A stretch of 64,000 bases of DNA from Patescibacteria group bacterium (GTDB taxonomy: Bacteria > Patescibacteriota > Patescibacteriia > UBA9934 > GWF2-40-263). The notes beneath the pieces were generated by a model. That model saw only the letters and a program-made list of their open reading frames with translations, was not told where the DNA came from and did no database searches. This document shows positions 5,752 to 41,402 of this stretch, piece by piece (the first letter of the stretch is position 1; the number at the start of each line of letters is the position of its first letter). Position numbers and translations under genes: made by a program. The stretch is from the NCBI GenBank assembly GCA_041661745.1, contig JBAZTR010000001.1, forward strand, positions 186,471 to 250,470, written 5' to 3'.

Positions 5752-7176
5752 TTATACGACTATTTCGCTTTCTTCCACCCTGGCCGCCGGGGCGTTGATT
5801 TCTTTATCGCCCTGCTCCAGCTCGGCCGTAACCTCGGCCCTGGTTTTGGCATAATTTTGCCGCGATTCCTCAACAATGTCTTGAGAAAAACTTTCGTGAT
5901 GCGACGGCGTGACCTCAAGAACATCAGCCGAGAACGGATCGAAACGTTTGCCATCAATGGTCATTTTAACATAAATCTCGCGCGCCCCGAGGTTAATGAT
6001 ATCGTGCATGTCAAAAATCGGGGCCAACTCATCTTTCAAAATCTTGGCATCATCGGCGCCAATTTGAAAAGTAATAACCGAAGCAACGTTACCAAAAAGC
6101 GAAGCTTTAAGACTATCGGAAAGCTGACTAAGATTTTGGTTGGCCACGGTCACGGCAATACCAAACTTACGCGATTCGGAAAGAAGATTTTCAAAAGTTT
6201 TAGTGGCAATATTTTGAAACTCATCAACATATAAATAAAACGGCTGACGCAGATGCTCTGGTAAACTAATACGTTTCATGGCCGACTGTTTTATTTTAGT
6301 AATAAGGGTGGCTCCGAAAAAAGCCGAAACATCATCACCAAGCAAACCCTTGGACAAATTAACCAAAACGATTTTGCGTTCCTGCATGAAATGATAAAAA
6401 TCGACTTTATTTTCTTTTTGGCCAAAAATGTTGCGCATCAACGGATCGGCCAGCAACTGCCCGAGTTTATTTAAAAGCGGCGAAACCGCTTCGGCATCAT
6501 ATCGTTGTGACCATTCAGGAAACTCGATCGCCCAAAAGCGACGAACCACACTGTCTTTTATAAACTCAATGACTTTACTGCGAAAGCGACCACTCGAAAG
6601 AAGCGAAACCATGCCGTTAATGGTACCGGCCGGATAATCAATCATGGCCAAGGTGGTCATGCGGAGCAGGTGCTCAACGCGTGGGGTCCAATCCGAACCG
6701 AATTGTTTTTTAAAAATTTCGATGAGCTCGTTGGTAACCGGAAAACGATCGGCTTCGACAACATTGGCAATTGGGTTAAAAGAAATGGGAAATTCGCGAT
6801 CACTGGGATTAATTAGCACCACATCATCAAGACGTTCTTCGGGAATAAAATCCATGATGCTTTGAACCAAATCACCGTGCGGATCAATAATACACACGCC
6901 GTGACCAAAAAAAACATCGGAACGAATCAACAGTTCCAACAATTTCGTTTTCCCCACCCCGCTTTTGCCAATAACGTACATGTGGCGGGTGCGATCTTTA
7001 CGTTTAATACCAAAAATCAAACGCTTGGCGGAAATTCCTTGACTAAAGTTGGATCGACCAAATAAAGAAATTTCTTCGGCCGGAGTATTATCTTTAGTTG
7101 GTAAAGCCGCCGGCGGTTCGTGCCGACGAGCAACAATTTGGTCTTCACCTTTCGGGTATTCCATATTAATTACCAC
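5752..7176 (-). CDS. P-loop NTPase of the TraG/TraD/VirD4 (type IV coupling-protein, DUF87-like) superfamily, copy 2, no TM segments
   Basis: The 474-aa product has Walker A GKSGVGKTKLLE, then IDPHGD, Walker B-like YLYVDEFQN and VTVANQNLSQL. It is paralogous to 7170..9077. Confidence 0.5.
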   Translation of the reverse strand: MVINMEYPKGEDQIVARRHEPPAALPTKDNTPAEEISLFGRSNFSQGISAKRLIFGIKRKDRTRHMYVIGKSGVGKTKLLELLIRSDVFFGHGVCIIDPHGDLVQSIMDFIPEERLDDVVLINPSDREFPISFNPIANVVEADRFPVTNELIEIFKKQFGSDWTPRVEHLLRMTTLAMIDYPAGTINGMVSLLSSGRFRSKVIEFIKDSVVRRFWAIEFPEWSQRYDAEAVSPLLNKLGQLLADPLMRNIFGQKENKVDFYHFMQERKIVLVNLSKGLLGDDVSAFFGATLITKIKQSAMKRISLPEHLRQPFYLYVDEFQNIATKTFENLLSESRKFGIAVTVANQNLSQLSDSLKASLFGNVASVITFQIGADDAKILKDELAPIFDMHDIINLGAREIYVKMTIDGKRFDPFSADVLEVTPSHHESFSQDIVEESRQNYAKTRAEVTAELEQGDKEINAPAARVEESEIVV

Positions 7177-9077
7177 GGGAAAATATCATCTTTTGATTTT
7201 GTTTGTGGGACAGGACGGCTTGGTTGATTTTGTTGCGGTTGACCGCCGCCGCCACTTGGCTTACGACGACGGCGACGTCTTTTTTGTCCTTCGCTGCTCG
7301 GCACGGCCAAGACAGGAGCAGCGGCTGGTTGAGTTTTCTTTAATTCTTGCGATAAAAAATCTCCCGGCATTTTAGGTAAGGCGGCCATTGGTTCAACCGA
7401 TGAACTTTCGTCATTTGTTTTTTCCTCTTTATTTTTTAACGAGGAAAGACTAACGGCTCCGGTTGTTTCTTTGGTAACTGGCGCGCCATCCTTAACCGCC
7501 GGCGGCAAGGCCGGTTTCCGATCATTAGCCCGTTCCTGACTGCGACCATTTCCCTTTTTTCGTTCTTCCCTAACCAACTCAATACAATCCTCACAATAAA
7601 TGGGACGTGATTTATCAAGTTCAACCGGCAAAATCATGTGTTTACCACACCGGGTACAATCGTATTCAAATAAAGGTTTCCCGCCAAATTTTTTGGCGGC
7701 CTTACGCACGGTTTCGGCATGCTCAAACTTTTCGACCACAGCTCCGGCCGCCACTGACGAGGTAACTTCCACCCCGCCACCTTCGGCCTCACTCCAACGC
7801 ATAATTTCGTCGGCCACAATGTCACGCGGCCGGGCGTAAAGAGCTCGAGAATTATCTATGACGATTTGTTCGGAATTGGTTTTTTGAACAATTGGCGGCA
7901 AAGTAACGGCGGAAAACGGTTCCGAAGCCACGCCGTCAATCATTAAACGAAGATAAATTTCAAATTTAGCCAAATTCACCAAATCTTCCGGAGTAAAACG
8001 GGGCATGAATTCAGTTTCCAGAAAAGCGGCATCCGGCGAACCGACTCGAAACATCATTATGGTTCCAACGTTGCCAAAAACCGCCGCTCGAACTTCTTCT
8101 GTTAACTGTTCAATGTACTGATGAGCCATGATTAAGGCCAAACGATATTTTCGAGCCTCAGACAAAATTGAAGCAAAACTTTCCGTGGCAAAGTTTTGGA
8201 ATTCGTCGATATACAGGTAAAAGTCACGACGCTCGATTTCCGGGGTGTCGACGCGTTCCATGGCGCAAAGCTGTAATTTGGTAATCAACATGCCGCCCAA
8301 AAGTTTCATGGCGTCTTCACCAATTCGCCCCTTGGAAAGGTTAACAATAAAAATCTTGCTGCTATCCATGATTTCTCGGGGCTTTATGGTCGAATCTACC
8401 TGAGCCACGATATTACGAATAACCGCGGTTGAAAGAAATTGTCCAACTTTGTTTTGAATAGGGGCAATCGCCTCAGTGCGGAACTTGGGCTCCCACTGTT
8501 CGAACTCGGTAATCCAATAAGATTTAACGACCGGGTCCTTAAGATTGGAAACCAGGCGCACCCGAAAGTCGCGATCAACCAACAAGCGATTGATGCCCAT
8601 TAAAGTATTGCCGGGATTTTCGAGCAAGGTCAAAATGCAGTTATTCAAAATATGCTCCATGCGCGGACTCCAAACATCAGGCCAGATTTTTTTAAAAACG
8701 CCCATGAGCCCCGAAGCAATAACGTGTCGGGTGTTAATATCGTGCGATTCCAAAATATTAAAACCCACAGGAAACTCAACATCGGACGGACAGAAATAAA
8801 CCACATCTTTCTGCCGCCATTCGGGGATATAATTGATAAGTTTTTCCGCGGTATCGCCGTGCGGATCAATATAAGCGCAACCATGCCCCAAATAAATGTC
8901 GGCCAAAATCATGTTTTCGAGCAAGGTTGTTTTACCCATGCCGGTTTTACCAATAACATAAGTATGCCGACGGCGATCGTCGGTTTTTATACCAAATTTC
9001 CGCATTTGATTGCGATAGTTGGTACGCGCGAAGTAAATTACATCGTGCTCGTGATCGTGATCTTCGTAAGCGGGCAT
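7170..9077 (-). CDS. P-loop NTPase of the TraG/TraD/VirD4-like superfamily, copy 1, with a C-terminal zinc ribbon and an Arg/Pro/Gln-rich tail
   Basis: The 635-aa product has GKTGMGKTTLLE, IDPHGD, YLYIDEFQN and MAHQYIEQL. Its C-terminus is CTRCGKHMILPVELDKSRPIYCEDC followed by ...KRRRRRRKPSGGGGQPQQ. It overlaps the next gene by 7 nt, which indicates an operon. Confidence 0.5.
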   Translation of the reverse strand: MPAYEDHDHEHDVIYFARTNYRNQMRKFGIKTDDRRRHTYVIGKTGMGKTTLLENMILADIYLGHGCAYIDPHGDTAEKLINYIPEWRQKDVVYFCPSDVEFPVGFNILESHDINTRHVIASGLMGVFKKIWPDVWSPRMEHILNNCILTLLENPGNTLMGINRLLVDRDFRVRLVSNLKDPVVKSYWITEFEQWEPKFRTEAIAPIQNKVGQFLSTAVIRNIVAQVDSTIKPREIMDSSKIFIVNLSKGRIGEDAMKLLGGMLITKLQLCAMERVDTPEIERRDFYLYIDEFQNFATESFASILSEARKYRLALIMAHQYIEQLTEEVRAAVFGNVGTIMMFRVGSPDAAFLETEFMPRFTPEDLVNLAKFEIYLRLMIDGVASEPFSAVTLPPIVQKTNSEQIVIDNSRALYARPRDIVADEIMRWSEAEGGGVEVTSSVAAGAVVEKFEHAETVRKAAKKFGGKPLFEYDCTRCGKHMILPVELDKSRPIYCEDCIELVREERKKGNGRSQERANDRKPALPPAVKDGAPVTKETTGAVSLSSLKNKEEKTNDESSSVEPMAALPKMPGDFLSQELKKTQPAAAPVLAVPSSEGQKRRRRRRKPSGGGGQPQQNQPSRPVPQTKSKDDIFPW

Positions 9078-9086
9078 AAGGTGAGG

Positions 9087-10733
9087 TTATAACGGAAGAT
9101 TCGGCGGAATAATTTTATCTTCCTCTTCCATTCCTTCCGTTGCTTCGTTGGGGGCTGGCGGAAGTTTTACATCTTCAAGCTCAACGCCCGGTTCAAACAA
9201 AACTCGCATAACATCGGGAACATTTTTTTGAACATTAGACGCAACGGCCGTGGGCTGAGATTTAGTCTTTTGAATTCTGTTTGGTTCAATCGGCGCGGCA
9301 AAAGAAATTTCCGGCTCTAAAGTCGGCGACGTGGCCAAACCAATCGGCGGCGCTTCTTTTTTAGTTGGAGTAACCGGTGGCGTGCGATAAAGCGGAACAT
9401 CCTCCCCGGCAATCGGCAAAGAAACCGGTGGTTCAGCGCGACGCGATTCGGTTTTCTTAATTAACGGCGCTTTTATGGTGATGGTTGGGAAATGCCAAAT
9501 AGTTGCCAGTTCTTCAGTACACAAAATTTTAGGGGCGGCTCCCAAACTAAAACTGCGCTTTTTAAATGCTTGGGCAACCCGGGACTGACGATGGGTGTAA
9601 GTCCACCTTTGCCAAAAATAATCGTTTTTTGGAATTTGCGGGCTATACATGCCGAATTCCTGAGAACCATGATTATTAAACGGCGAAAGAAAACCCTTAA
9701 TCATGGGAACGCGTTGCCCCTTGCTATAAACGCCTTTTTTAGCAAAATAAGCAATTCTGATTTTAGTTTCAAAACCGAGGTGGGAAATCTTGTTCAAAAC
9801 CCCCTCAACTTGGGCTTTTTCTTCCAAAGTAATTTTAAAAGCCCGCCAAGGATCTTCCGGCTTATCAGAAGCTCCGCCTTCTAGGCCAAACATGGCGTTA
9901 ACATCAACCCCGGTGACTTCGTTGACAAAACCGCCCGGCCAAGACATCAGCTGATCCAAAAAACCATTTCCCTTGGCATCATCTTTAAGGCCGTAAGTTT
10001 TTTTAATAAACTTTCGCCCCTGCTCTTTCCATTTTTTTTGTTCAGATAAACCAAGAAGTATTTGAAAAAAGAAACATTCCCCCGGCCGCATACGACTCAT
10101 TTGTTCCAAAAGAGCGGACAACGGATCTTTTAACTCTTGTGATAGACCATGTTCAAACATTGGCCAAGTGCGTACAGGAAGATACTGATCTTTTTTTAAA
10201 ACAAACTCCGTTCCCCACATATCCCATTCAGGATCAGGGTACCTGCCCGGCACAATTTGGGCATAATCTTCAACTTCGGCGATTTGCGCGTCGGGATACT
10301 GGGCATAAATAGCGGCTTCGACCAAATCACGAAAACGCTCTTCACAACGAACGTAATACTGAATATAGCCATCAATGGAGGCAATCTCAAAACTAAACCG
10401 TGGCTGCATTTTGCCCATGAACCAAATTTCTTTCCAAAGCAGAGTGGAAAAAGTACCCTGAAGCGTGACAAAAATATTCTCCACGGCTTTTGGACTTTGC
10501 TCGGTCATTTTAGGCACGTCAATCGCTAAAACAATATACTGCAGGCGACCTTGAAAAATACCTTGCCGATAATCCTTCCAAATTTCCATTAATCCTTCGA
10601 GTAAAATGGCGGCAATGGGAATCCAACCGACTAATAAAATAACTTCCAAAAGAGCAACATCGATTGGTTGATTAAGAAAGGCGTGTAGATACGCTTCGGG
10701 CTTCGAGGTAATGGCAATGGCGAAGAGGAACAT
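9087..10733 (-). CDS. membrane protein (two N-terminal TM helices, large soluble domain, Pro-rich C-terminus), first gene of the ATPase cluster
   Basis: The 548-aa product has hydrophobic segments in the first 50 aa (AIAITS..., LLVGWIPIAAILL). It lies 10 nt upstream of the ATPase gene. No family recognised. Confidence 0.5.
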   Translation of the reverse strand: MFLFAIAITSKPEAYLHAFLNQPIDVALLEVILLVGWIPIAAILLEGLMEIWKDYRQGIFQGRLQYIVLAIDVPKMTEQSPKAVENIFVTLQGTFSTLLWKEIWFMGKMQPRFSFEIASIDGYIQYYVRCEERFRDLVEAAIYAQYPDAQIAEVEDYAQIVPGRYPDPEWDMWGTEFVLKKDQYLPVRTWPMFEHGLSQELKDPLSALLEQMSRMRPGECFFFQILLGLSEQKKWKEQGRKFIKKTYGLKDDAKGNGFLDQLMSWPGGFVNEVTGVDVNAMFGLEGGASDKPEDPWRAFKITLEEKAQVEGVLNKISHLGFETKIRIAYFAKKGVYSKGQRVPMIKGFLSPFNNHGSQEFGMYSPQIPKNDYFWQRWTYTHRQSRVAQAFKKRSFSLGAAPKILCTEELATIWHFPTITIKAPLIKKTESRRAEPPVSLPIAGEDVPLYRTPPVTPTKKEAPPIGLATSPTLEPEISFAAPIEPNRIQKTKSQPTAVASNVQKNVPDVMRVLFEPGVELEDVKLPPAPNEATEGMEEEDKIIPPNLPL

Positions 10734-13882: not shown

Positions 13883-15019
13883 TTAAATCCAAGCTAATAA
13901 TCCAGCCAAAACAATCACCACGATTGTGTGTGCAATGATTGTATGATGCTGAATTTCAAATTTAATCAAGATACTGGCGAGGAGAATGGCCGACAAAACA
14001 GCCATAGTTAATAAGAATAACTGTCGAACTGTATCTTCGATTCCGTTAATGTGTAAAAAACCGAGCAGGGTTAATTGTCGATTACCACCTTCGGCATAAA
14101 AAACATCGCGACTATCTGAGCTGCCAGCTACCCAACCGGCCTTTTGTATTTCACTTTCGCCGTCTTTCTTGGCTTGCACAAAAACATCGGCACCATCAGT
14201 ATCCGGAACTTCAGAAATAGTTGAAACCGTGCCCGTCCAAATATCCGTTCTTTCGTCTTTAACTAACTCAACACTGTTTTCGTTTAACGAAACTTCAACT
14301 TCATCAGCGGTTGGCGCGGTCACGGCAACCTCAACCCCCGTTGTTGTTAAAACAACATTGGTTATCGTAGCCAGCTTGGTTTCAGGTTCAGTTTCTTGCG
14401 CTAAAATTTCACTTGGTTTATTCCTTGGTTTACCAAACATTTGAACAACAACGATAGAATTCTCAAAATTATTAAAATTTCCACGAGCCACCCCAACACC
14501 AATATCGGCAAAACGTTCGTCCATTATGTTGGCGCGGTGAGTGGGGCTAGCCAACCAACCAGCCAGCGTGTCCTCGGCTTGAGTGTAATAAACCGCCAAA
14601 TTCTCCCCAGCCAATTCATAAGCGTAACCGTTGGAAAGAATCCACTGCCACGGCGTGACATTGGCGGGACTAGTGTGAGCGAAATACTGATTTAAAATCA
14701 TGTCTTCGGCCTTGGCTTGAGCCGCGGCATCAAGTTTGGTGTTATCGACCAGCTCCGTTAGCCCGGCCGAACGACGGCTGGCGTTGGTCAAATCAATAAT
14801 ATTTTCACGCGTCACCGCACTGGAATAAAGGCTGGCCGATGGTAAAAAAAGCTGGGCGCTAATTAGGGCCAATTTTATTATTATCAAAAAAAAGCTGTAC
14901 GCAAACAAGGCTTGATGACGAATTGCCTTAGGTTTGTGGTCATTCCCCTCGTGCGGAACAAAATAATCTTTAGAAATTCTTTTTGAGGCGTGAAAGAAAC
15001 GCGACAAGTGCTGTTTCAT
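13883..15019 (-). CDS. membrane-anchored CAP/SCP (cysteine-rich secretory protein-like) domain protein
   Basis: The segment NQYFAHTSP...LAGENLAVYY...WLASPTHRANIMDERFADIGVGVA matches CAP. It has an N-terminal TM. The start was moved to MKQHLSR to avoid overlapping the sortase gene. Confidence 0.6.
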   Translation of the reverse strand: MKQHLSRFFHASKRISKDYFVPHEGNDHKPKAIRHQALFAYSFFLIIIKLALISAQLFLPSASLYSSAVTRENIIDLTNASRRSAGLTELVDNTKLDAAAQAKAEDMILNQYFAHTSPANVTPWQWILSNGYAYELAGENLAVYYTQAEDTLAGWLASPTHRANIMDERFADIGVGVARGNFNNFENSIVVVQMFGKPRNKPSEILAQETEPETKLATITNVVLTTTGVEVAVTAPTADEVEVSLNENSVELVKDERTDIWTGTVSTISEVPDTDGADVFVQAKKDGESEIQKAGWVAGSSDSRDVFYAEGGNRQLTLLGFLHINGIEDTVRQLFLLTMAVLSAILLASILIKFEIQHHTIIAHTIVVIVLAGLLAWI

Positions 15020-15044: not shown

Positions 15045-15683
15045 TTACAGCTCGACCAATTCGGCCACCACAATAAAACGTGCCAGGGCTGTGCCAAATG
15101 GATAAGAAGTCTGAAGAGTCAAAACAATTTTACCATCAGTTTCTTGATTCAAGACTCTAAGATCAGAAGGAGAAATAACGAAGGTTTCTTTGACCTGAAA
15201 ATGAAAGAGGTGGCCAGCCTGATTGGTCGCGTAAATATCATCACCTAATTTAATATTCGGTAAAAGGGCAAAAATGTATCGATAAGAATTATCAACCCAA
15301 GTAAAATCACTAGAGTGACCAAAAATATAAGCATTGCCGACTGCTCCGACTTCGGCTGTGTCAGGATAATGAACGACCCCCTGTCTTAACAGTTCTTGGA
15401 AAACATCTTCGTCCACAGTTTCGGTAAAAAGAATAGGCGTACGAATATTAAGGGCAGGTATAGCCAATTCGTTAGCCGCCAATTCAGGCGGCCCGGTTGG
15501 TTCTGATGGTGCTTCGGAGGTAATTATTTGAGTTATTTGTGCTGTTTTGTATTTAGTTAAAATGGCAATGTAACCAAAATTCAAAATAAAATAAAAACCA
15601 AAGGCTACAAGCAAAATAAGCCCGGCTTTTTTCCAGTCAAAAAAATATTTAGTTTTGTGTATCGGCTTTTTTTTCTCCCCCAT
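15045..15683 (-). CDS. sortase-family transpeptidase homolog with Ser in place of the catalytic Cys (TLQTS instead of TLxTC)
   Basis: The 212-aa product has an N-terminal TM. It contains GNAYIFGHSS...GDDIY...ISPSDLRVL...DGKIVLTLQTSYP...ALARFIVVAELV, which aligns with the sortase core (His, TLxTC, Arg). It has no Cys at all. Confidence 0.7.
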   Translation of the reverse strand: MGEKKKPIHKTKYFFDWKKAGLILLVAFGFYFILNFGYIAILTKYKTAQITQIITSEAPSEPTGPPELAANELAIPALNIRTPILFTETVDEDVFQELLRQGVVHYPDTAEVGAVGNAYIFGHSSDFTWVDNSYRYIFALLPNIKLGDDIYATNQAGHLFHFQVKETFVISPSDLRVLNQETDGKIVLTLQTSYPFGTALARFIVVAELVEL

Positions 15684-15736
15684 AGAACACTCCTACTCAA
15701 AAACGCCAGCTCTGTTTAAGGCTGGCGTTTCATTCA

Positions 15737-18244
15737 TTAAGCTTTTTTCCTTCGACGAAACGCGAGTATAAATAAACTTGCAAAAGGCAACAGGAAAGAA
15801 ACCGGCAAGCCAGTACGCGGCAATTCATCAGTCGCCCCAAGAACCATTGGCTCCGGAGTAACAACGGCCGGATCAGCCACGACCTCGGCTTCGTCGGTTA
15901 CACCAAGAACCATTGGTTCTGGCGCAGTGACGGCCGGATCAGCTATATCTTCTTCGTCAGCTTCGTCGGTTACACCAAGGACTGTTGGTGTAGGGGTTGA
16001 GGAACCACTGGACGATGTTCCCCCATGACCGCCACCAGTGCCGATTTGGTGATCTTCGATCAGAATTGTAACTTCATAATTTTGATTGGCTGCCATAGTC
16101 ACCACACCAACATTATTACAATCACCACTTATGACAACACTATATCCATCTTCAGCCGAAGCCATAACCAAAGAATCGTCAATCACTGGTTCTTCTGAAC
16201 CTTCGTGACCGTCAAAAATTTCATAAATTTTATATTCGCCAGGAGAAAAATCAGTTTTTACATCTTGTGAAACCACGGTTTCCCCAGCGTATAAAGTGAA
16301 ATCGTAAGGTGTAAAATTATGTCCGTCGTTATTACTAATCTCAAGATGAACGGTTAAATGTCCGTTTCCATCAGAATCGTCACCCATAACATCTTCTAAA
16401 CCACCTGAATCAATTTCACCACCTGACTCGTCGCCACCCTCTCCACCCTCTCCACCCTCTCCACCCTCTCCACCCTCTCCACCCTCTCCAAAATCACCAT
16501 CAATACCACCGATTTCACCTTCAGAATCATCACCTGTTTCTTCTTCCTCTTCGGTTTCTTCGTCGCCACTCCCGTCATCTTCTATAATTTCATCATCACC
16601 CAATTCCTCATCTCCGGTTTCGTCGTCGCCTGTCTCGTCAACAATTTCATCACCGGATTCGTCGCCACCCTCTCCGCCCTCTCCAAAATCACCATCAATA
16701 CCACCGATTTCACCTCCAGAATCATCACCTGTTTCTTCTTCCTCTTCAGATTCATCATCGCCGGTTTCATCATCGACCTCTTCACCTGATTCGTCTTCGC
16801 CTTCACCGCCTTCGCCACCCTCTCCGCCCTCTCCAAAATCACCATCAATACCACCGATTTCACCTTCAGAATCATCACCTGTATCGCCGGTTTCTTCTTC
16901 TTGAGCAATATCATCGTTTATAATCGTACATTTTTTTTCATCACCAGGGCCAAGAGTAATCGAACCGTCGGCAGCACAATCACCATTAATTGTGGTTGTA
17001 TAAAGGCTTGATCCACCTTCAGAAACGGTATAAGTACCAAGAGCAAACTCGGTGGCCACATCATTGCTGACCGACACACCATCAACGAAAAGTGGAAAAT
17101 TTTCAGCAGTCATCGTTCCGCCATTGTCGTTGATAACTGTTTCAGTAACAGTTAATGTTGGCAAAATAGCACTATTTGTAAAACTACAAGTAGCATTAAC
17201 AGGTTCTGTCCCGGCTTCAACCGTGGTTTGGGCCGTCTCTCCATCGAATTCACAATTATCACCGCCCCAGGCAGTTAAAGAATAACCAGAAGGACCAGAT
17301 TCAACGATAGTATAAGTTCCGGCTGGGACATCTGTAATTATTACCGAGGACGAACCGTCTTCAATATCAAAAGTTGTTTGATCGTTAATGGCCGGCGAAA
17401 CAACAAATGACCATTCATCAGCCGAATCCGGCCCACTGGCCACAGTCTTCATTAAAGTTAAGGTTGGCAAAACTGTAGTTTCGTCTTCTTCAGCATCTAC
17501 TGGATTAATGGAAATTGTTTCTTTGGCAGTATCCAATTTGACACTCAAAGACGAACCAGGAAATTCGCTTGCTTCTGATCCAAGACGAGCACAAAGATAG
17601 ACATAAGCGGTTTGATTTCCTGGAATATCTTCAAGAGCAATATTGTAATATCTTTGTGCATCGGTTGATGTGGTTGAATCACCATCATCACTGGAAAATG
17701 GTCCGGTAACAACGGCCGAAACCGAACTCCCATCGCTAACCGGAAAAGTCATGGAAGAAAACGAGGTAGCCGGATATAAAAAATCACTCAAATCATCGGC
17801 ATCGTGTGGCGCGGTAAGCGAGGTGGAAATTCCTTCGAAATCTGTAATACCTAAATAGCCGCTTTTATAATAATCAAAAGAGAGACCAAATGTTACGTCA
17901 TCTGTTGAAGCGATTTTGTTCTCAACATCCACAAGAATAGGGACACAGGAGCCTTCGGGATAATTGGAAACATTTCCGTTATTAAAAGAACCGGATCCAC
18001 TTTGTCCAGAGCTAGAAATCGACACGGAGTCAGCATCAAAAACATACATGGATTCAGTTTTAACTGCCGCTCCGGCCAATGGAACAAGAAATGTTTGAGC
18101 GACAAGAAAGCACGAAAGGATGCAAAAGCTTAAAGAAGATTTTACAGAGGACGACCGAACTTTCGATATCCAAGATCGTCCTTTCTTAACCTTTTTCATA
18201 TCAAAAATATTAACTTTTTGATTAAAAATAATAATTTTCTCCAC
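15737..18244 (-). CDS. LPxTG-type cell-surface protein (LPRTG sorting signal) with acidic Gly/Glu low-complexity repeats
   Basis: The 835-aa product has an N-terminal signal/TM and a C-terminus ...ATDELPRTGLPVSFLLPFASLFILAFRRRKKA. The middle is GEGGEGGEG/DESGEE repeats. Confidence 0.75.
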   Translation of the reverse strand: MEKIIIFNQKVNIFDMKKVKKGRSWISKVRSSSVKSSLSFCILSCFLVAQTFLVPLAGAAVKTESMYVFDADSVSISSSGQSGSGSFNNGNVSNYPEGSCVPILVDVENKIASTDDVTFGLSFDYYKSGYLGITDFEGISTSLTAPHDADDLSDFLYPATSFSSMTFPVSDGSSVSAVVTGPFSSDDGDSTTSTDAQRYYNIALEDIPGNQTAYVYLCARLGSEASEFPGSSLSVKLDTAKETISINPVDAEEDETTVLPTLTLMKTVASGPDSADEWSFVVSPAINDQTTFDIEDGSSSVIITDVPAGTYTIVESGPSGYSLTAWGGDNCEFDGETAQTTVEAGTEPVNATCSFTNSAILPTLTVTETVINDNGGTMTAENFPLFVDGVSVSNDVATEFALGTYTVSEGGSSLYTTTINGDCAADGSITLGPGDEKKCTIINDDIAQEEETGDTGDDSEGEIGGIDGDFGEGGEGGEGGEGEDESGEEVDDETGDDESEEEEETGDDSGGEIGGIDGDFGEGGEGGDESGDEIVDETGDDETGDEELGDDEIIEDDGSGDEETEEEEETGDDSEGEIGGIDGDFGEGGEGGEGGEGGEGGEGGDESGGEIDSGGLEDVMGDDSDGNGHLTVHLEISNNDGHNFTPYDFTLYAGETVVSQDVKTDFSPGEYKIYEIFDGHEGSEEPVIDDSLVMASAEDGYSVVISGDCNNVGVVTMAANQNYEVTILIEDHQIGTGGGHGGTSSSGSSTPTPTVLGVTDEADEEDIADPAVTAPEPMVLGVTDEAEVVADPAVVTPEPMVLGATDELPRTGLPVSFLLPFASLFILAFRRRKKA
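16395..16905. repeat. tandem coding repeats (9-bp CCACCCTCT units and about 150-bp units x3) inside the LPRTG protein gene
   Basis: Visible direct repeats ccaccctctccaccctctcc... and three copies of ...tctccaaaatcaccatcaataccaccgatttcacc... Confidence 0.7.
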
Positions 18245-35725: not shown

Positions 35726-36610
35726 TCAATGATTAGCCGCCCAACAAAACCAATAAGCCGTGGTCAGGGCCACTTCGTTTTCGTTCTTGTCATATCCTTT
35801 CACAGTTTCCAATTCCTCATCCCAAACAAAATCAACTTCCGTGCCACTAATAGTTTTGGCACTTTTAATATTATCTAGCGGAAAAACCTCCGAACCGTAA
35901 CTGTAGACAATGGTTTTGGCCGGATAACTCGAATCGTATTTATTCAACGGATACCAAACCGCCGGCGTGGCTGCGTAATTGCCGTATGGATTATGCGAAT
36001 AATCGCGAGCTGAACCGGTTTCGCGCGACAACACATAACCATTGGGAAAATTTTCTTTGAACGATTGCCAGGTCATGACATAAGAAGGAATGGCCGAAAG
36101 GTTATCGCCGGTCTCGGGAAGAGTTTGACCGTCAAACGAACGCCAAAGTAAATCTGTTTCTTCGGCCGTAAACAACATGGAGTTGTTATAAATTTTTCCG
36201 GAATTTTTAAAAAGCCTTTCGCTTTCGAAAACGGCCGCACTGCCACACAACGGATCATAAGAAACTAAAATCGACGAACCGTTCCAAACATCATTAACCA
36301 AATTGTGCCAAACCAAAATCTGAAAAGGATAAAACCTCGCCTGTCCCCTGCCCCCTATCCCCTCCAAAACAAGACCAAGCCCTTCATTTAACAAATAAGT
36401 GTCGGCCAACGGAACTGATTCGAAATCAGAATCATTAAGAGCAGGACGCGAGTCGTTGTCTGAACCTGTATCTATTATCGAATCTTCCAATCCTGGCTGA
36501 ACCAGATTTCGTGGCGGCAAGTGATTAAAATACTCAAAAACAAAAAAGCCGACAAAAATCGCTAAAATAACAAAAATGATCAATTTTCTCTTGTTTAAGA
36601 ATTCCTTCAC
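35726..36610 (-). CDS. hypothetical protein (DUF3179-like?), N-terminal TM
   Basis: 294-aa product. The family assignment is by vague recollection only. An internal G-tract encodes GIGGRGQARF. Confidence 0.4.
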   Translation of the reverse strand: MKEFLNKRKLIIFVILAIFVGFFVFEYFNHLPPRNLVQPGLEDSIIDTGSDNDSRPALNDSDFESVPLADTYLLNEGLGLVLEGIGGRGQARFYPFQILVWHNLVNDVWNGSSILVSYDPLCGSAAVFESERLFKNSGKIYNNSMLFTAEETDLLWRSFDGQTLPETGDNLSAIPSYVMTWQSFKENFPNGYVLSRETGSARDYSHNPYGNYAATPAVWYPLNKYDSSYPAKTIVYSYGSEVFPLDNIKSAKTISGTEVDFVWDEELETVKGYDKNENEVALTTAYWFCWAANH

Positions 36611-36617
36611 ACAAAAA

Positions 36618-36671
36618 TAGAATATCAGAAAAAAATAATACCGGCCACCTGGGGTTGAACCAGATGGCCGG
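36618..36671 (-). terminator. rho-independent terminator of the high-GC IPT/TIG gene
   Basis: On the minus strand CCGGCCATCTGGTTCAACCCCAGGTGGCCGG forms a hairpin, followed by TATTATTTTTTTTCT. Confidence 0.65.
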
Positions 36672-36680
36672 AGAGGTGCC

Positions 36681-37757
36681 CTAGCGGTGGCCGGGGGCGG
36701 CGACGATCCCGTTGATCGGAGCGGGCGGAGCGAGTCCCTCCTCGATCGAGTTGGCCACCATAGTAAGTCTGCCGGCGATCAAGGCAGCAGCCAGGAGGAT
36801 CGCCAGGACCACGCTCCCGATGACCGCCGGAACCACCCACGGCTTCATGGGGGCCGGCGGGACGGCCGGGGCAGGAGGCTCGGGCGGCGGGGGCGGCTTG
36901 GCCATGTGCGGCGTCAGCTGGTCGACCACCTCCTTAACGGCCTTGCCGACCATCTCGCCATTCCGGATCATCAGGTCGCCGACGATCTTCGGATCAACGC
37001 CGGGCGGGATCGCGATGACCGGAGCGGCGACTCGCGAGGCCGAGCCCGCGGGCGGGGTCGAGCTGCGCGGAGGAGGCGACGGCGGCGGGGCGGCGACCTT
37101 GGTCTTGAACGTGAAGGCGTCCGCCAGGAAGACGGACTCGCCACCGTTGTTCTTGACCTCGACGCTCGCCACTCCGACCGGGAAGGCGGGAGTCTTGGCC
37201 AGGATCTTGGTGTCGGACACGAACCGGATGTCCGTGCCGACGACCTTGGTCGCGGGCGTGAAGAAGAACACCTGGCAGTCGGCCGTGAAGCCGCTGCCGG
37301 TCACCTCGACCTCGAGGCCACCAGTCTCCTCGCCCTCGGTGGGCGTGATGGAGGTGACGGCGAGAACGGGAGGCGGTGGGGGCGGAGGCGGCGGTGGGCT
37401 GCTGATCGCGACGACCCAGCCGACCGCTCGGGCGTGGGCGAGCGCCCGATCCTTGAAGTCGGGCCGCCAGTCCCGGATGGCCTCGAGCTCGGTCATGATC
37501 TCGGCCTCGGAGCGGTTGGCCGAAGCCACGACCAGCTCCTCGACCTTGCAGATGATGTCGATGACCGTGGTGTCATCGTTGCCCAGCGCGGCCGCTTTCG
37601 TGAACTTGTCCGCGACATCGACCGAGACGTTGTCCCACTCGGTGAACTTCCAGGCCATGAGCGAGCTGAAGTCGCCGGCCGGGCTGGGGGCAGACCAGAT
37701 GGCCACGGCCGCATGGAACGCGGCCTGCTGTTCTGGGGTGAGGGTAGTGATGTCCAT
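36681..37757 (-). CDS. high-GC surface-type protein with an IPT/TIG-like Ig domain, poly-Pro linkers and a C-terminal TM anchor
   Basis: The 358-aa product has PPPPPPPPPP; an Ig-like segment VTSITPTEGEETGGLEVEVTGSGF...VFFF...IRFVSDTKILAKTP...VEVKNNGG..SV..D.FTF; and a C-terminal hydrophobic stretch AVIGSVVLAILLAAALIAG. GGAGA lies before the ATG. The long + strand ORFs here are Arg-rich antisense artefacts. Confidence 0.6.
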   Translation of the reverse strand: MDITTLTPEQQAAFHAAVAIWSAPSPAGDFSSLMAWKFTEWDNVSVDVADKFTKAAALGNDDTTVIDIICKVEELVVASANRSEAEIMTELEAIRDWRPDFKDRALAHARAVGWVVAISSPPPPPPPPPPVLAVTSITPTEGEETGGLEVEVTGSGFTADCQVFFFTPATKVVGTDIRFVSDTKILAKTPAFPVGVASVEVKNNGGESVFLADAFTFKTKVAAPPPSPPPRSSTPPAGSASRVAAPVIAIPPGVDPKIVGDLMIRNGEMVGKAVKEVVDQLTPHMAKPPPPPEPPAPAVPPAPMKPWVVPAVIGSVVLAILLAAALIAGRLTMVANSIEEGLAPPAPINGIVAAPGHR

Positions 37758-37908
37758 GGTATCTCCGGGGTCAGGGAGGGTGGGAGAAGGTGCATCAAAC
37801 AGCCGAAAAACCGGCCGAATGAACAGAGAAAAATATCACATTTTCCAAAAAAAGTCAAGAATCTTATCAAAAACAAAAATTTATCAAAAAAAGAATTTCC
37901 TTCTAATC

Positions 37909-37938
37909 TTGACAAAAACCAAAAAATGGGCTATTTTA
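37909..37938 (+). promoter_or_regulatory. sigma70-like promoter (TTGACA, 17 nt spacer, TATTTT) in the AT-rich divergent spacer, driving the 38065 gene
   Basis: cTTGACAaaaaccaaaaaatgggcTATTTTact. A strong SD GGGAGGA lies 6 nt before the ATG at 38065. Confidence 0.45.
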
Positions 37939-38064
37939 CTTAGCTCGAATTGAGCACAAGGTAGTTAGCTCCCTAAACAATTCACCCAATTCGTTCGTAA
38001 GTTTTTTTGTCGTAATTCTTCGCCAGAACGCTGAACACACCCGAACCCCGAAAGGGAGGACAAA

Positions 38065-39222
38065 ATGAGCGAGATCAACATCCTGGATCTCTGGGCAGCA
38101 ACCGGCATCATGGAGGCGCTCCTGCCCCTGATCCGAGAGGTCGACAAAAGGTTCGTCCCCGAGGACCACAACCTGACCTACAACCAGGTCGAGTGGAGCC
38201 GTCACGGCGACGGATGCATCGGAAGCATCATGCTCGTCGACGAGGACGGCAAGGATCAGGAGATCGCCTGCTACCCGATCTCGACCAGGTGGAACGTGGA
38301 CATCACCACCCCCCACATGGTACTGGCCTTCCAGGTCACCAGAAGCAACAACGAACCCGAAACCGAGGACGACCTGAGCGACGGTCGCTGGTACGCCATT
38401 CCGGTCGGTCTGGCACCAACCTCGATCCGGACCAAAGTCGAGAGGGCCTTCCAGGAAGTCGGCCTCCTCAACGGTCGTCTCCCCGGCCTCAAGCCGCACG
38501 AGTGGGACGACTCTCCGGAACGCCGGTTCAACCTGGTCTTCCAGCGCCGGCGCGGCGACATGATCGCCTGGTACCAGGGGAAGGTCTGCGTCCTGGTCGA
38601 AGGTTCGCCAATCCCCAAGCCCGGCAAGGAGGTCATCTGCGAAGTGGTGACCGAGCGCCTGAGCAAGGTCGTCGTCCGCTGGACGGGCATGACCGTCGAG
38701 CAGGCCAGGAAGAGGATCGACGAACAGCGACGCCTGGCCGGTCTCCGAAGCAGCATCCGCCGGGCCGCGCGCGTGGAGCGACCCGAGCTCAAGGATCCCG
38801 TGGCCGCCATGGGGCTCGAGCCGGACAAGCTGAGCGGCGGACGCCTCAACAGCGCCTACCGCCGGCTGCGCCAGCAGGTCCCGACGACCGAGGAGGAGGC
38901 CGGCGCCAACCCGCTGGCCAAGGCCATGGTCGAAGTCGGCCTGCCCTTCCAGGCCGACAACCTAGACTGGCCGGTGTTCTACGCCGAGTACCTCGACCGG
39001 GCCGACCGGGCCGCGGTCCAGGTCCTCAAGGACAAGCGCACGAAGGAGCGCGAGGAGGCCGAACGCACGGCCACCCCGCCGCCCGTCGAGCCCGCCACCG
39101 AAGGCGAGGGCCACGAGGAAGCGGTCGCCGACCTCGACACCGCCGACGAAGACCTCCTGGTCGAGGAGTCGACCGACGACGGCTCCGCCCAGCCCCGCGA
39201 GGAGGGCGCGAACGCGAAGTAG
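38065..39222 (+). CDS. high-GC hypothetical protein (385 aa, acidic C-terminal tail)
   Basis: A long ORF with a strong RBS and its own promoter and terminator. No motif recognised. The C-terminus is Glu/Asp-rich. Confidence 0.55.
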   Translation: MSEINILDLWAATGIMEALLPLIREVDKRFVPEDHNLTYNQVEWSRHGDGCIGSIMLVDEDGKDQEIACYPISTRWNVDITTPHMVLAFQVTRSNNEPETEDDLSDGRWYAIPVGLAPTSIRTKVERAFQEVGLLNGRLPGLKPHEWDDSPERRFNLVFQRRRGDMIAWYQGKVCVLVEGSPIPKPGKEVICEVVTERLSKVVVRWTGMTVEQARKRIDEQRRLAGLRSSIRRAARVERPELKDPVAAMGLEPDKLSGGRLNSAYRRLRQQVPTTEEEAGANPLAKAMVEVGLPFQADNLDWPVFYAEYLDRADRAAVQVLKDKRTKEREEAERTATPPPVEPATEGEGHEEAVADLDTADEDLLVEESTDDGSAQPREEGANAK

Positions 39223-39254
39223 ACGGACTTCCCCGTCAACTTCACGTCCCACAC

Positions 39255-39293
39255 GGCCGCTGTGCACCTAGTGCATGGCGGCCTTTTTCTTTT
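39255..39293 (+). terminator. rho-independent terminator (GGCCGC..GCGGCC hairpin plus TTTTTCTTTT)
   Basis: A GC hairpin lies 33 nt after the 39222 stop, followed by a T-run. Confidence 0.6.
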
Positions 39294-39363
39294 ACAAAAA
39301 TTTATGACTATCGACCGTGACTGTGGTATAATATTTAAAACAAAAGAAAATAAAAAAACTTTT

Positions 39364-40143
39364 ATGTCTATTTATCCAAATTGGAAAGGCGAAAGAGTGT
39401 ACGCTATCGCCGTTTTCGTACTCATTGTGAGCGCGATTATTTATCTCGGCGTAAAAATTGACAACATTGTCCGACAATCAAAAGAAGTCGGTCAACCCAC
39501 GCCCTATGAACATACAATCATGATTGAAGGCGAAGGCACGGTTACTGGTAAGCCAGATATTGCCACTTTTGTCATGGGCACGGAAAGCCATGGGGTCGAT
39601 GCGGCCGCGGCACAAACCGCCAATAGCACCATCATGAATAAAATTATTGAAGATACTAAGGGCTTAGGAATTTCTGAAGACGATATTCAAACTTCCGGCT
39701 ACAATATTTACGAAGATCTTCAATGGAATTCGGACACTGGTGATTATGATTCAAAAGGATGGATCGTTTCCAACTATGTCACGGTTAAAGTCCGCGATGT
39801 TTCCAAACTTTCAACCGTCTTAGCTATGGCCGGTCAAAATGGCATTACTGATATTTCCGGTCCAACTTTCACAATTGATGACACCACTAATTTAAAGGCC
39901 GAGGCCAGAACCGAAGCTATTCAACAAGCGCAAACCAAAGCGCAAGCTATTGCCACAGCCCTTGGTATGAGAATTGAAAAAGTTGTTGGTTACAGCGAAT
40001 GGTCCCCTTCGATTTATGACTACTCATATGCTTATGGTATGGGTGGGTCAGACGAAAAATTAAGTTCAGCCATGCCATCTATCGAGGCCGGTTCAACCGA
40101 AGTTTCACTAACCGTTTCCATCACTTACAAATTGGCCGAATAA
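39364..40143 (+). CDS. SIMPL/DUF541 domain protein (26 kDa periplasmic immunogenic protein-like)
   Basis: The product has an N-terminal TM, then IEGEGTVTGKPDIATF...GWIVSNYVTVKV...GPTF.IDD....AR.EAI..A..KA in the SIMPL pattern. The start was moved to MSIYPNW. The ORF track's earlier start lies in the high-GC terminator. Confidence 0.65.
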   Translation: MSIYPNWKGERVYAIAVFVLIVSAIIYLGVKIDNIVRQSKEVGQPTPYEHTIMIEGEGTVTGKPDIATFVMGTESHGVDAAAAQTANSTIMNKIIEDTKGLGISEDDIQTSGYNIYEDLQWNSDTGDYDSKGWIVSNYVTVKVRDVSKLSTVLAMAGQNGITDISGPTFTIDDTTNLKAEARTEAIQQAQTKAQAIATALGMRIEKVVGYSEWSPSIYDYSYAYGMGGSDEKLSSAMPSIEAGSTEVSLTVSITYKLAE

Positions 40144-40184
40144 TTACAAAAATAAAAATCGCCCTGTTCAACAGAGCGATTTTT

Positions 40185-41402
40185 TTATTTTTTCTTTAAT
40201 ACATCGACAATCAGTTTTGCCACCCCCAGGGCGGTACCATCAAAAACTATTTGCGAACGAATCGGAACACCAGAAATCTTTTGCTGCTCTTCAATAATTA
40301 TTCCATCACGAGTCACCCCACCATCGACAATAATCAGTTTTGGTTTATTTGGTAATTTTTTGATAAGAATATCAACTTTCTTGGCAATACCAGTCAGAAC
40401 CTGTCGCAACTTTTTTGGATCTTTCAAAACCGGTTCAACCGCCGCGGCACAGTTTTCCACTTTAGCTTCAAAACAGAAGATCGGTTTTCCACCAACAGTC
40501 GGAAGAAGCGTGGTAAAAAAATCCGCATGAAGTTTAAATTTATTACCAAGCGATTGATCAACAAAAGCCCCAGTTCCGTAGGTCACTTTGGTTGCGCCGA
40601 CTTTTGTTCCGGCCGCATAGGCACTGGCTTGCTGATCACCGGCCACAGCCAAAACTGGAAGTTTGGCTCCGATAATCTCTTTCTTTAAAAAACCAAACTT
40701 AGCTCCGGAAGAAAAAACATCAGGCAGTATTTCCCGCGGCACTCCGAAAAGCTCCAATAGCTCTTCGTCCCAATCTTTTTTCTTTAAATTAAACAATAAT
40801 GTCCTAGACGCATTTGTTTCATCAGTCAGAAAAGGTTCGTCTTCACACAAATTCCAAAGAAACCAAGTATCAACCGTGCCAACCAAAAGTCTTTCAGCCG
40901 CCAAAAGTTGGCGGGCTTTTGGAACATTCTCCAAAATCCATTGAATCTTAGTCGCGGAAAAATACGGATCAAGTCGAAGGCCGGTTTTTTCTGATATCAA
41001 GCCCTCACAAAAACCCTTAGTGCCCTTTAATGCCTTAACGCCCTTTAGCGTCCTTTTATCTTCCCAAACAATCGCCGGATAAATAGGCTGACCGGTTATA
41101 CGATCCCAAGCGATAACTGTTTCGCGTTGATTGGTTAAACCAAAACCGGAAAAATGATTAAGTTTAACTCGACTGGCTCGAACCGCCTCTTTTAAAACTT
41201 GCTTGGCGGCTGACAAAATTTCCAAAGGATCTTGTTCAACCCAATCTTTTTTAAGGCGGCGTTTTTTAACCGGTCGATTGACTCGCGCCTCAATTTTAAA
41301 TTCCGCATTAAAAACAAAAGCTTTAATGCCAGTGGTTCCAACATCCAAAACCAGTGTGTGATCAACCTTGTTGTAGGTATTTTTCGAAAAGTTTTTTAGC
41401 AT
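40185..41402 (-). CDS. FGGY-family carbohydrate kinase (glycerol-kinase-like)
   Basis: The segment HTLVLDVGTTGIKAFVF...TNQRETVIAWD...IVWEDKRT resembles GlpK (AIDQGTTSSRAV...TNQRETTIVW...AIVWQDRRT). Confidence 0.7.
   Translation of the reverse strand: MLKNFSKNTYNKVDHTLVLDVGTTGIKAFVFNAEFKIEARVNRPVKKRRLKKDWVEQDPLEILSAAKQVLKEAVRASRVKLNHFSGFGLTNQRETVIAWDRITGQPIYPAIVWEDKRTLKGVKALKGTKGFCEGLISEKTGLRLDPYFSATKIQWILENVPKARQLLAAERLLVGTVDTWFLWNLCEDEPFLTDETNASRTLLFNLKKKDWDEELLELFGVPREILPDVFSSGAKFGFLKKEIIGAKLPVLAVAGDQQASAYAAGTKVGATKVTYGTGAFVDQSLGNKFKLHADFFTTLLPTVGGKPIFCFEAKVENCAAAVEPVLKDPKKLRQVLTGIAKKVDILIKKLPNKPKLIIVDGGVTRDGIIIEEQQKISGVPIRSQIVFDGTALGVAKLIVDVLKKK

Follow-up and report, generated by a model that had tools for sequence, protein, structure and literature searches.

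Sortases normally use a cysteine to attach proteins to the cell wall, and it is as cysteine transpeptidases that they are defined, placed in MEROPS (clan CL, family C60), and pursued as drug targets. Penicillin-binding proteins, which are serine D,D-transpeptidases, carry out extracellular transpeptidation onto peptidoglycan via a serine oxy-ester acyl-enzyme, and for this reason the serine chemistry proposed below is feasible; the comparison is a functional analogy only, with an unrelated fold and substrate and no homology to the proteins described here. Among solved structures, the best relative by sequence of the protein that we describe is CpSrtD, the Clostridium perfringens class D sortase (PDB 4D70; E 3.4e-9), whose catalytic His, Arg, and TLxT motif align with it and whose nucleophile is Cys. 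In Staphylococcus aureus SrtA, the nucleophile substitution described here has been made at the same triad position in the laboratory: the activity of the C184S mutant is reported as "dramatically decreased" (PMC4827206), and the mutant serves as a "cys-less" scaffold (PMC5578623). That mutant carries a lone substitution in a thiolate-tuned site, whereas the natural proteins have extra fixed changes beside the His and the Ser. We found no description of a serine-nucleophile sortase variant in the literature, although subscription-only papers were not covered.

Here, we describe a locus in a 64,000-nucleotide stretch of Patescibacteria DNA (the window) that encodes a 212-aa sortase homolog with serine in place of the catalytic cysteine. 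There are no biochemical data, and we give a probability of roughly 65% to the following reading: the protein is anchored in the membrane, lies outside the cell, and works as an active sortase with a serine nucleophile, whose dedicated substrate is the surface protein encoded directly upstream. The protein looks like a working serine sortase because Ser is also found in its relatives, which come from hundreds of species of ultra-small CPR bacteria and each usually lie beside an LPRTG protein of their own.

A sortase fold without cysteine

The sequence-only reading had proposed that the protein is a sortase homolog over its whole core, and profile and structure comparisons bear this out. The Pfam Sortase domain PF04203 matches along its full length (profile positions 1 to 125 of 125; E 1.4e-22; 80.2 bits against a cutoff of 26.6), and TIGR01076 sortase_fam gives 41.1 bits against a cutoff of 39.35. 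The AF2 model has a pLDDT of 90.9; all 50 PDB matches listed for it by Foldseek are sortases at probability 1.00, with TM to target of up to 0.8 among those listed, and CpSrtD is among the top fold matches (TM to target 0.71, 25% identity). On the Pfam match, the model, and the fold matches together, this is a true sortase-fold protein.

Assignment to a described class fails. Scores of 43 and 41 bits with the NCBIfam class D models lie far under the cutoffs of 140 and 165, so the protein is not a class D member, and those with the models for classes E (40 bits, cutoff 160), C (35, cutoff 160), F (21, cutoff 166), and GN (31, cutoff 158) likewise leave it, as judged by profile scores, meeting no curated cutoff of any of these five. 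One relative (P0004) is nonetheless labelled "class E sortase" by NCBI. The product itself exactly matches an entry named "MAG: sortase [Patescibacteria group bacterium]" (P0001); automated annotation labels the Ser-type proteins plain "sortase," which hides the Ser/Cys difference.

The protein had also been read as lacking cysteine altogether, with Ser at the catalytic Cys position; it indeed contains 0 Cys, and phmmer alignment places Ser193 (TCT) at that position. In the alignments to solved sortases 4d70, 8t28, and 24rr, "GHR" is matched by "GHSS" in the query, "TxxTC" by "LTLQTS," and the catalytic Arg falls in "ALARF." The His and Arg of the His-Cys-Arg triad are present as His123 and Arg202. 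The TLxTC signature with its nucleophilic Cys is not met, the protein having TLQTS. Coordinates are collected in Table 1.

Table 1. Features of the serine-type sortase locus (positions within the window)
Feature	Position	Strand	Remarks
CAP/YkwD-domain protein gene	13883..15019	(-)	downstream of sortase; C-terminal membrane segment
Ser-type sortase gene	15045..15683	(-)	212 aa, 0 Cys; NCBI protein MFA6131638.1
Arg202 codon CGT	15078..15080	(-)	catalytic Arg, aligned to solved sortases
Gln191-Thr192-Ser193-Tyr194 (CAG ACT TCT TAT)	15102..15113	(-)	replaces Cys-type [I/M]-T-C-T
Ser193 codon TCT	15105..15107	(-)	at catalytic Cys position
Asp126 codon GAT	15306..15308	(-)	His+3; specific to Ser clade
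His123 codon CAC	15315..15317	(-)	catalytic His in GHSS motif, aligned to solved sortases
Sortase N-terminal membrane anchor (inferred)	15555..15623	(-)	residues about 21-43, hydrophobic helix
Spacer between substrate and sortase genes	15684..15736	(-)	53 nt: stable hairpin, then U-run, then AGGAG ribosome-binding site
LPRTG-anchored surface protein gene	15737..18244	(-)	835 aa from GTG start
Cell-wall sorting signal	15737..15823	(-)	LPRTG (15809-15823), hydrophobic stretch, RRRKKA, stop codon
Three 66-72-nt repeats	15819..15989	(-)	encode P-x-VLG[V/A]TDE units
9-bp tandem repeat	16434..16490	(-)	6.3 copies, encodes GEG
Three copies of 113-nt coding repeat	16467..16924	(-)	acidic stalk; spaced 195 and 150 nt

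Near the N terminus, residues 23 to 41 form the most hydrophobic 19-mer of the sortase (Kyte-Doolittle mean 2.18); they are preceded by Lys-rich residues and lie within a helix at residues 17 to 54 of the AF2 model. The inferred topology is an N-terminal membrane anchor with the catalytic domain, at residues of about 60 to 212, outside the cytoplasm.

A serine clade and its cysteine sisters

The nucleophile position is Ser in 228 of 228 Ser-type relatives. The catalytic His is kept in all of these and in 148/148 Cys-type relatives, the catalytic Arg in each of the 227 Ser-type sequences covering that position, and this invariance of His, Ser, and Arg extends across Ser-type proteins just 35 to 55% identical. 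All six Ser codons are used for the nucleophile across the clade (TCT 26, TCG 20, TCC 19, TCA 15, AGC 1, AGT 1), with saturation at synonymous positions and two switches of codon family. Such codon usage suggests that selection acts on the nucleophile Ser itself.

A trivial explanation for the serine could be that TGT (Cys) became TCT (Ser) in this one genome, through an error of sequencing or assembly or through a recent mutation that inactivated the protein, given that a single base separates the two codons. This explanation has already been refuted and retains next to no credence. Three other independent assemblies or runs (ERZ27249449, SRR6484324, and SRR18595301) contain the identical 212-aa protein, and, together with the invariant Ser and its varied codons, this rules out an error that would restore Cys on correction, which the sequence-only reading had named as a possible refutation. 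Moreover, a relative of the protein is encoded by 311 stretches in a collection that represents each species by one genome.

Cysteine-bearing relatives do exist. An exhaustive HMMER search ranked Ser-type proteins first: they made up all of about the top 100 cluster representatives, and Cys-type relatives came only after them, from an E value of about 5e-29 onward. The latter are a sister family of Cys-type sortases in the Patescibacteria (CPR) (e.g., P0213, P0227, and P0272), a few members of which have the source name "sortase [Candidatus Saccharibacteria / Saccharimonadales]." In a neighbor-joining tree of 116 Ser-type and 32 Cys-type representatives, each family is monophyletic with respect to the other, and on this tree the Ser-type sortases appear to have a single origin in one Patescibacteria clade.

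The sisters have the same fold, an N-terminal anchor, and the invariant His and Arg; they are 35 to 50% identical to the Ser clade over the catalytic domain and share with it nearly all conserved motifs (GVVHY.GTA, GN.[YF]IFGHSS, TL.T., P.GT, and R[FL]IV). Most listed members are longer, at 350 to 450 aa. Around the active site, the two families part. Where the sisters have [I/M]-T-C-T, the Ser clade has Q-T-S-Y/W, and where they have Asn at His+3 and Ser at nucleophile+6, it has Asp and Ala. Four changes thus accompany the nucleophile: N to D126 (His+3), I/M to Q191 (nucleophile−2), T to Y/W194 (+1), and S to A199 (+6). Position 191 is Gln in 227/228 Ser-type proteins and position 194 is Tyr or Trp in all 228; at His+3, Asp is found in 216 of 228 Ser-type and Asn in 124 of 148 Cys-type proteins. 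An acidic residue there might orient the general-base His, as in a Ser-His-Asp serine hydrolase reached by convergence, but any role of Asp126 in catalysis is inferred only, with no model distances to support it.

Residues next to the catalytic positions are thus fixed in a new state, and the active site, on this pattern of conservation and without activity data, is remodelled rather than decayed. A pseudoenzyme would be expected to have lost or drifting catalytic residues under relaxed constraint. That pattern is not seen: of the triad, only the nucleophile has changed, and its new state, Ser, is fixed, activity being inferred.

Pairing with an LPRTG surface protein

The gene upstream had been described from the sequence as encoding an 835-aa LPRTG protein with a hydrophobic stretch and a basic tail, and it does: the product ends ...ELPRTG-LPVSFLLPFASLFILAF-RRRKKA and then stops. 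The gene adjoining the sortase accordingly meets the tripartite criterion (LPXTG, hydrophobic segment, basic tail) for a sortase substrate. An alternative ATG start is possible at codon 16 (18199). The protein has a signal peptide, two SpaA_2 prealbumin-like domains, and an acidic stalk of G/E/D-rich repeats. A pilin substrate for a class C-like polymerizing sortase was considered and rejected, as the 835-aa protein has no YPK pilin motif and there is a single substrate gene. Between the two genes, direct folding of the spacer detected the hairpin (−18 kcal/mol, z −3.1), and a scan for consensus terminators did not pick it up.

Repeats of about 150 bp and of 9 bp, claimed to be prone to length variation, were likewise found. 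The longer ones resolve into three 113-nt units at 195- and 150-nt spacing. The length of the 9-bp repeat differs between assemblies: a 27-bp (3-unit) deletion in it is all that distinguishes ERZ27249449 across 6.6 kb. Two Logan contigs end inside the repeat, at about 16463. Nearer the C terminus, the last P-x-VLG[V/A]TDE unit continues into LPRTG, and the unit fits a family-wide pre-motif, P-x-V-L-G-A-x-T/D-E.

The pairing is conserved. For 65 of 82 Ser-sortase genes, a gene encoding LP[R/V]TG, a transmembrane segment, and a basic tail lies immediately upstream on the same strand. Within these 65 sorting motifs L, P, and G are invariant, T is present in 63, and the X residue is R in 56 and V in 6. 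Three proteins, P0124, P0133, and P0141, are in-frame fusions with the order substrate-LPRTG-TM-basic-TM-sortase, an arrangement consistent in membrane topology. On the other side of the sortase gene, the CAP/YkwD product is supported by Pfam CAP (E 1.1e-17) and an NCBIfam YkwD match, and gene calls in other assemblies give it 378 aa; a homolog occurs in 20 of 80 related loci, mostly directly adjoining the Ser-sortase gene.

By comparison, in the two Cys-type sister loci examined the neighbors are genes for MurA, MreB, and glycosyltransferases, and none of the adjacent genes encodes an LPXTG protein. The context of P0213 is uninformative because its contig is just 2 kb.

Is the serine protein the enzyme?

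The sequence-only reading had left two options, a serine-nucleophile variant or a dead sortase retained as a partner. That pair of options is supported, and the evidence leans to the active branch, which is favored because the clade is conserved, its active site appears remodelled and not decayed, and the LPRTG pairing is conserved. The second option is the main rival: the Ser protein would be inert, dedicated to binding, holding, or presenting its LPRTG neighbor, and a Cys sortase encoded elsewhere would cleave and anchor the substrate. We consider this unlikely, though not negligible. Binding-only pseudoenzymes can conserve pocket residues too. A protein that only binds, however, has no obvious need for a general-base His or for Ser specifically, and the invariance of His, Ser, and Arg over 228 divergent sequences, with saturated synonymous turnover at the Ser codon, speaks against inertness, as do the directional and fixed character of the neighboring substitutions and the occurrence of substrate-sortase fusions.

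The search for the Cys sortase that this rival needs was less decisive. No second sortase was found in the window by tblastn with the Ser protein or with a clade HMM (--max, E<=1, ORFs >=80 aa), which is sensitive enough, since it detects Cys sisters at E values of about 1e-25 elsewhere. Within about 10 kb of the 80 related loci there was no Cys sortase either, but this is weak evidence and the sample is too small to decide; in the ~1.4 Mb of flanks, we estimate that ~1.4 would be expected by chance, assuming one per genome placed at random, and the absence is not significant. Equally weak is the finding that Ser-type and Cys-type proteins never share a longest contig among the 120 matches listed of each. 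The rest of the source genome lay outside the data analyzed, and a Cys-type sortase encoded at a distance could still be doing the chemistry: Patescibacteria do have such enzymes, in the sister family, and at the two loci examined these sit among cell-wall genes as housekeeping enzymes would. The near inactivity reported for SrtA C184S (PMC4827206) also counts against the active reading, for which there are no biochemical data.

If the serine protein is the enzyme, its course of action can be outlined by inference. It would recognize an extended signal, P-x-VLG-A-x-T/D-E-LPRTG, on a membrane-retained precursor; the stretches proposed as substrate peptides are VLGATDELPRTG and ...PMVLGATDELPRTGLP... 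His123 would activate Ser193 for attack on the Thr-Gly bond, with Arg202 holding the oxyanion and substrate and possible help from Asp126, Gln191, and Tyr194, which are specific to the clade. The acyl-enzyme formed on Ser193 would be an oxy-ester and not a thio-ester, and an amine of a cell-wall precursor would resolve it, anchoring the adhesin-like protein. Catalytic competence and transpeptidation, the roles of the three clade-specific residues, and the acceptor are all inferred.

The last step admits a further alternative, that the protein is an active serine protease and not a transpeptidase, cutting LPRTG and releasing the product by hydrolysis or passing it to a non-peptidoglycan acceptor. 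A point of general chemistry in its favor is that an acyl-enzyme undergoes aminolysis less readily as an oxy-ester than as a thio-ester. Also in its favor, the structure of the CPR cell envelope is poorly known (PMC5220378). Set against this are the serine acyl-enzymes of penicillin-binding proteins, which do transpeptidate, and the conservation of the sorting signal with all three of its parts, which holds the precursor back for transpeptidation. Present evidence does not separate hydrolysis from transfer, and we regard this alternative as improbable, more so than the inert-partner explanation.

Returning to the active serine sortase, a fuller version of it is one that we favor only slightly over its denial. 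They would be the first sortases in nature with a serine nucleophile and would make up a Patescibacteria clade that is both ancient and monophyletic and whose triad was rebuilt as Ser-His-Arg with co-evolved Asp126, Gln191, and Tyr194; the enzymes would be thiol-free and oxidation-insensitive, each would serve one dedicated adhesin through a VLGAxxE-LPRTG signal, and in some lineages enzyme and substrate would form a fused, self-processing polypeptide. Were the protein inert instead, it would represent a pseudo-sortase, conserved and with its own dedicated client, and that too is undescribed. If it is active, the sortase fold supports serine chemistry, and the clade offers a natural experiment on how a Cys nucleophile is converted to Ser, in which compensating residues can be identified, as well as a thiol-free scaffold for protein ligation ("sortagging") that would resist oxidation and alkylation. 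For the organisms themselves, it would identify a dedicated surface-anchoring system and its adhesin in widespread, uncultivated, and probably episymbiotic bacteria.

A sortase homolog without cysteine

CPR bacteria commonly encode sortases and LPXTG proteins (PMC6744442; PMC3812714). A full-text literature search turned up nothing on Ser-for-Cys sortases or a TLQTS/LQTSYP motif, and neither Pfam nor NCBIfam contains a dedicated model for a Ser-type sortase. The sequence-only reading had proposed that the window encodes a sortase-like protein that lacks cysteine and has serine at the catalytic cysteine position, and translation, alignment, and structural modeling bear out each part. The protein matched the entire Pfam Sortase profile (E value of 1.4e-22; 80 bits versus a cutoff of 26.6), and phmmer alignment to the solved sortases 4d70, 8t28, and 24rr placed its FGHSS over the catalytic His motif, LTLQTS over TxxTC, and ALARF over the catalytic Arg. 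A confident AlphaFold2 model (46 homologs; pLDDT, 90.9; pTM, 0.82) comprises an N-terminal helix (residues 17 to 54, membrane anchor) followed by a β-barrel, for which the top Foldseek matches in the PDB were all sortases of classes A, C, D, and E (probability, 1.00). NCBI lists the protein as MFA6131638.1, "MAG: sortase [Patescibacteria group bacterium]." It passed the generic NCBIfam sortase model (41.1 versus 39.35 bits) and did not reach the class C, D, E, F, and GN models (21 to 43 bits versus cutoffs of 140 to 166). Because the defining nucleophile and all class-specific models failed, the protein is, judged by sequence, a sortase superfamily homolog outside every existing class.

Features of the window discussed in the text
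Feature	Coordinates	Strand	Description
ORF	7170-9077	-	Weak similarity to TrwB/TraG-D_C coupling proteins of type IV secretion and to HerA-like ATPase domains
Adjoining ORF	9087-10733		548 aa, unannotated
CAP/YkwD-domain gene	13883-15019	-	C-terminal membrane segment
Ser-type sortase gene	15045-15683	-	212 aa, zero cysteine; PF04203
Arg202 codon CGT	15078-15080	-	Catalytic Arg
Ser193 codon TCT	15105-15107	-	Nucleophile position
His123 codon CAC	15315-15317	-	Catalytic His
Spacer	15684-15736	-	53 nt, substrate stop to sortase start codon
LPRTG surface-protein (substrate) gene	15737-18244	-	835 aa from GTG; translation could plausibly start at the codon 16 ATG instead
Three 66-72-nt units	15819-15989	-	In substrate gene
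9-bp repeat	16434-16490	-	6.3 copies, in substrate gene
Three 113-nt units	16467-16924	-	In substrate gene
GC-rich island	36000-40200		GC 0.56-0.57 versus ~0.44 elsewhere
IPT/TIG-domain gene	36681-37757	-	In island
SIMPL/DUF541 gene	39262-40143	+	In island

Elsewhere in the window, long overlapping ORFs occupy both strands of the GC-rich island, which lacks rRNA and may be horizontally acquired DNA.

Conservation of serine and apparent remodeling of the active site

A trivial explanation for the serine could be a sequencing or assembly error. We attach almost no weight to it, since the identical protein was found in three independent data sets (ERZ27249449, SRR6484324, and SRR18595301) and all 228 Ser-type sequences carry Ser, encoded by six codons across 82 genes. 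In a word-seeded search, LQTS[Y/W]P and invariant His and Arg were present in 120 of the 120 best matches (40 to 60% identity). Because that search was possibly biased to the word LQTSY, we searched 1.84 billion cluster representatives exhaustively with HMMER and obtained 4649 matches at E values of ≤1e-3 and 93 at ≤1e-30. Approximately the top 100 representatives were entirely Ser type; Cys-type relatives, with the motif FGHSS...TL[M/I]TC[T/V/W]P.GT...R[F/L]IV, began at an E value of ~5e-29.

Scanning one genome per GTDB species revealed 311 stretches encoding a relative, the best 80 nearly all from Patescibacteria MAGs (Doudnabacteria, Uhrbacteria, Yanofskybacteria, Parcubacteria, and Paceibacter; some automatic taxon labels are unreliable). 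In the 81 Ser-sortase genes of these 80 loci plus the window gene, the Ser codons were TCT (26), TCG (20), TCC (19), TCA (15), AGC (1), and AGT (1), a spread over TCN and AGY indicating that synonymous sites are saturated while the amino acid is constant. Two lineages (L042 and L068) crossed between the codon families; such a crossing takes two substitutions, and the codon in between could have read Thr or Cys, a hint of occasional passage through Cys. Two otherwise typical Ser-sortases (L043 and L050) carry the variant LQASYP, with Ala in place of the Thr just before the Ser.

All retrieved proteins were pooled for comparison. Position 193 is Ser throughout the Ser type (228/228) and Cys throughout its Cys-type sisters (148/148). 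The two groups were reciprocally monophyletic in a neighbor-joining tree of 148 representatives, a pattern that fits a single origin. Cysteine is absent from the catalytic domain of 86% of Ser-type proteins; 99% of Cys-type proteins have exactly one there. From these alignments, the active site of the Ser clade seems to have been rebuilt, not to have decayed.

Residues at and beside the active site other than the nucleophile (window numbering)
Position	Ser-type	Cys-type
His123	228/228	148/148
Arg202	227/227 covering position	148/148
126 (His+3)	Asp 216/228	Asn 124/148
191 (nucleophile-2)	Gln 227/228	Ile or Met 145/148
194 (nucleophile+1)	Tyr or Trp 228/228	Thr 130/148
199 (nucleophile+6)	Ala 205/228	Ser 113/148

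Proposed catalysis

We favor, with a probability of about 0.65, the interpretation that the window protein is an active Ser sortase, its catalysis being inferred. The membrane-anchored, extracellular enzyme would use His123 to deprotonate Ser193 for attack on the Thr-Gly bond of the membrane-retained precursor. Arg202 would have its canonical sortase role, stabilizing the oxyanion or positioning the substrate, and a cell-wall amine would resolve the oxy-ester acyl-enzyme. Transpeptidation via a serine acyl-enzyme is well precedented in penicillin-binding proteins. By inference only, three clade-specific residues might compensate for the poorer nucleophile: Asp126 by orienting or polarizing the His, and Gln191 and Tyr194 by donating hydrogen bonds in the vicinity of the nucleophile.

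The activity of engineered Staphylococcus aureus SrtA C184S was reported to be dramatically decreased (PMC4827206), and such near inactivity weakens the proposal of an active Ser sortase. The Ser protein could instead be an inert, noncatalytic partner, which we consider unlikely without dismissing it. No Cys-type sortase was found in the 64-kb window and 80 related loci (~1.4 Mb in total), an uninformative absence because chance alone predicts only about one; among the matches listed, no Ser-type and Cys-type proteins had longest contigs of equal length, which is weak evidence. An enzyme capable only of hydrolysis is more doubtful still.

Pairing with an LPXTG surface protein

The upstream protein had been read as having an LPRTG motif, a hydrophobic stretch, and an RRRKK tail, and its C terminus is indeed a canonical sorting signal (ELPRTG-LPVSFLLPFASLFILAF-RRRKKA, then stop). 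It also has a signal-peptide-like N terminus, two SpaA_2 prealbumin-like domains, and an extremely acidic Gly/Glu/Asp-rich repeat region. A sorting-signal gene lies directly upstream on the same strand for 65 of 82 Ser-sortase genes, and several of the other loci are truncated by contig ends. In contrast, no LPXTG gene adjoins the Cys-type sortase at the only two such loci examined (L082 and L084), where it lies among MurA, MreB, Wzy, and glycosyltransferase genes in what looks like a housekeeping context; the few source-named Cys-type members are Saccharibacteria or Saccharimonadales sortases.

Within the 65 upstream motifs, L, P, and G are invariant, T occurs in 63, and X is R (56), V (6), D, T, or M (1 each). 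Family-wide, LPRTG directly follows a premotif, P-x-V-L-G-A-x-(T/D)-E, that may be an extra recognition element; the window substrate has three copies (TVLGVTDEA, PMVLGVTDEA, and PMVLGATDE), only the last followed by LPRTG. Three cluster representatives (P0124, P0133, and P0141) are in-frame substrate-LPRTG-TM-basic loop-TM-sortase fusions whose topology would put sorting motif and catalytic domain both outside the cell. Seen at the protein level only, each is a self-contained substrate-enzyme polypeptide unless a stop codon has been lost; as Rosetta-stone-type fusions, they support a direct functional link.

The spacer contains a 12-bp hairpin (one-nucleotide bulge; -18 kcal/mol; z, -3.1) leading into a U-tract, followed by an AGGAG ribosome-binding site. 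A consensus terminator scan missed this hairpin. By partly terminating or attenuating transcription, it could set a high substrate-to-sortase expression ratio. CAP/YkwD homologs occur in 20 of the 80 loci, mostly directly adjoining the Ser-sortase gene on either strand, and form a three-gene cassette with adhesin and sortase in the closest relatives. At one locus (L023), both the Ser-type sortase gene and the LPRTG-protein gene are present twice, suggesting local duplication of the pair.

The sequence-only reading had also described tandem coding repeats prone to length variation in the substrate gene. They are present, with one further set (the 66-72-nt units), and the length of the 9-bp array varies: over 6.6 kb, an independent 203-kb contig (ERZ27249449) differs from the window only by a 27-bp deletion of three units (GEGGEGGEG), and two Logan contigs (L086 and L087) end within the array at ~16463. 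A short-read assembly artifact is not excluded.

Because the window substrate has no YPK pilin motif, the predicted role of the Ser-sortase system is more likely wall anchoring of a single adhesin than pilus polymerization.
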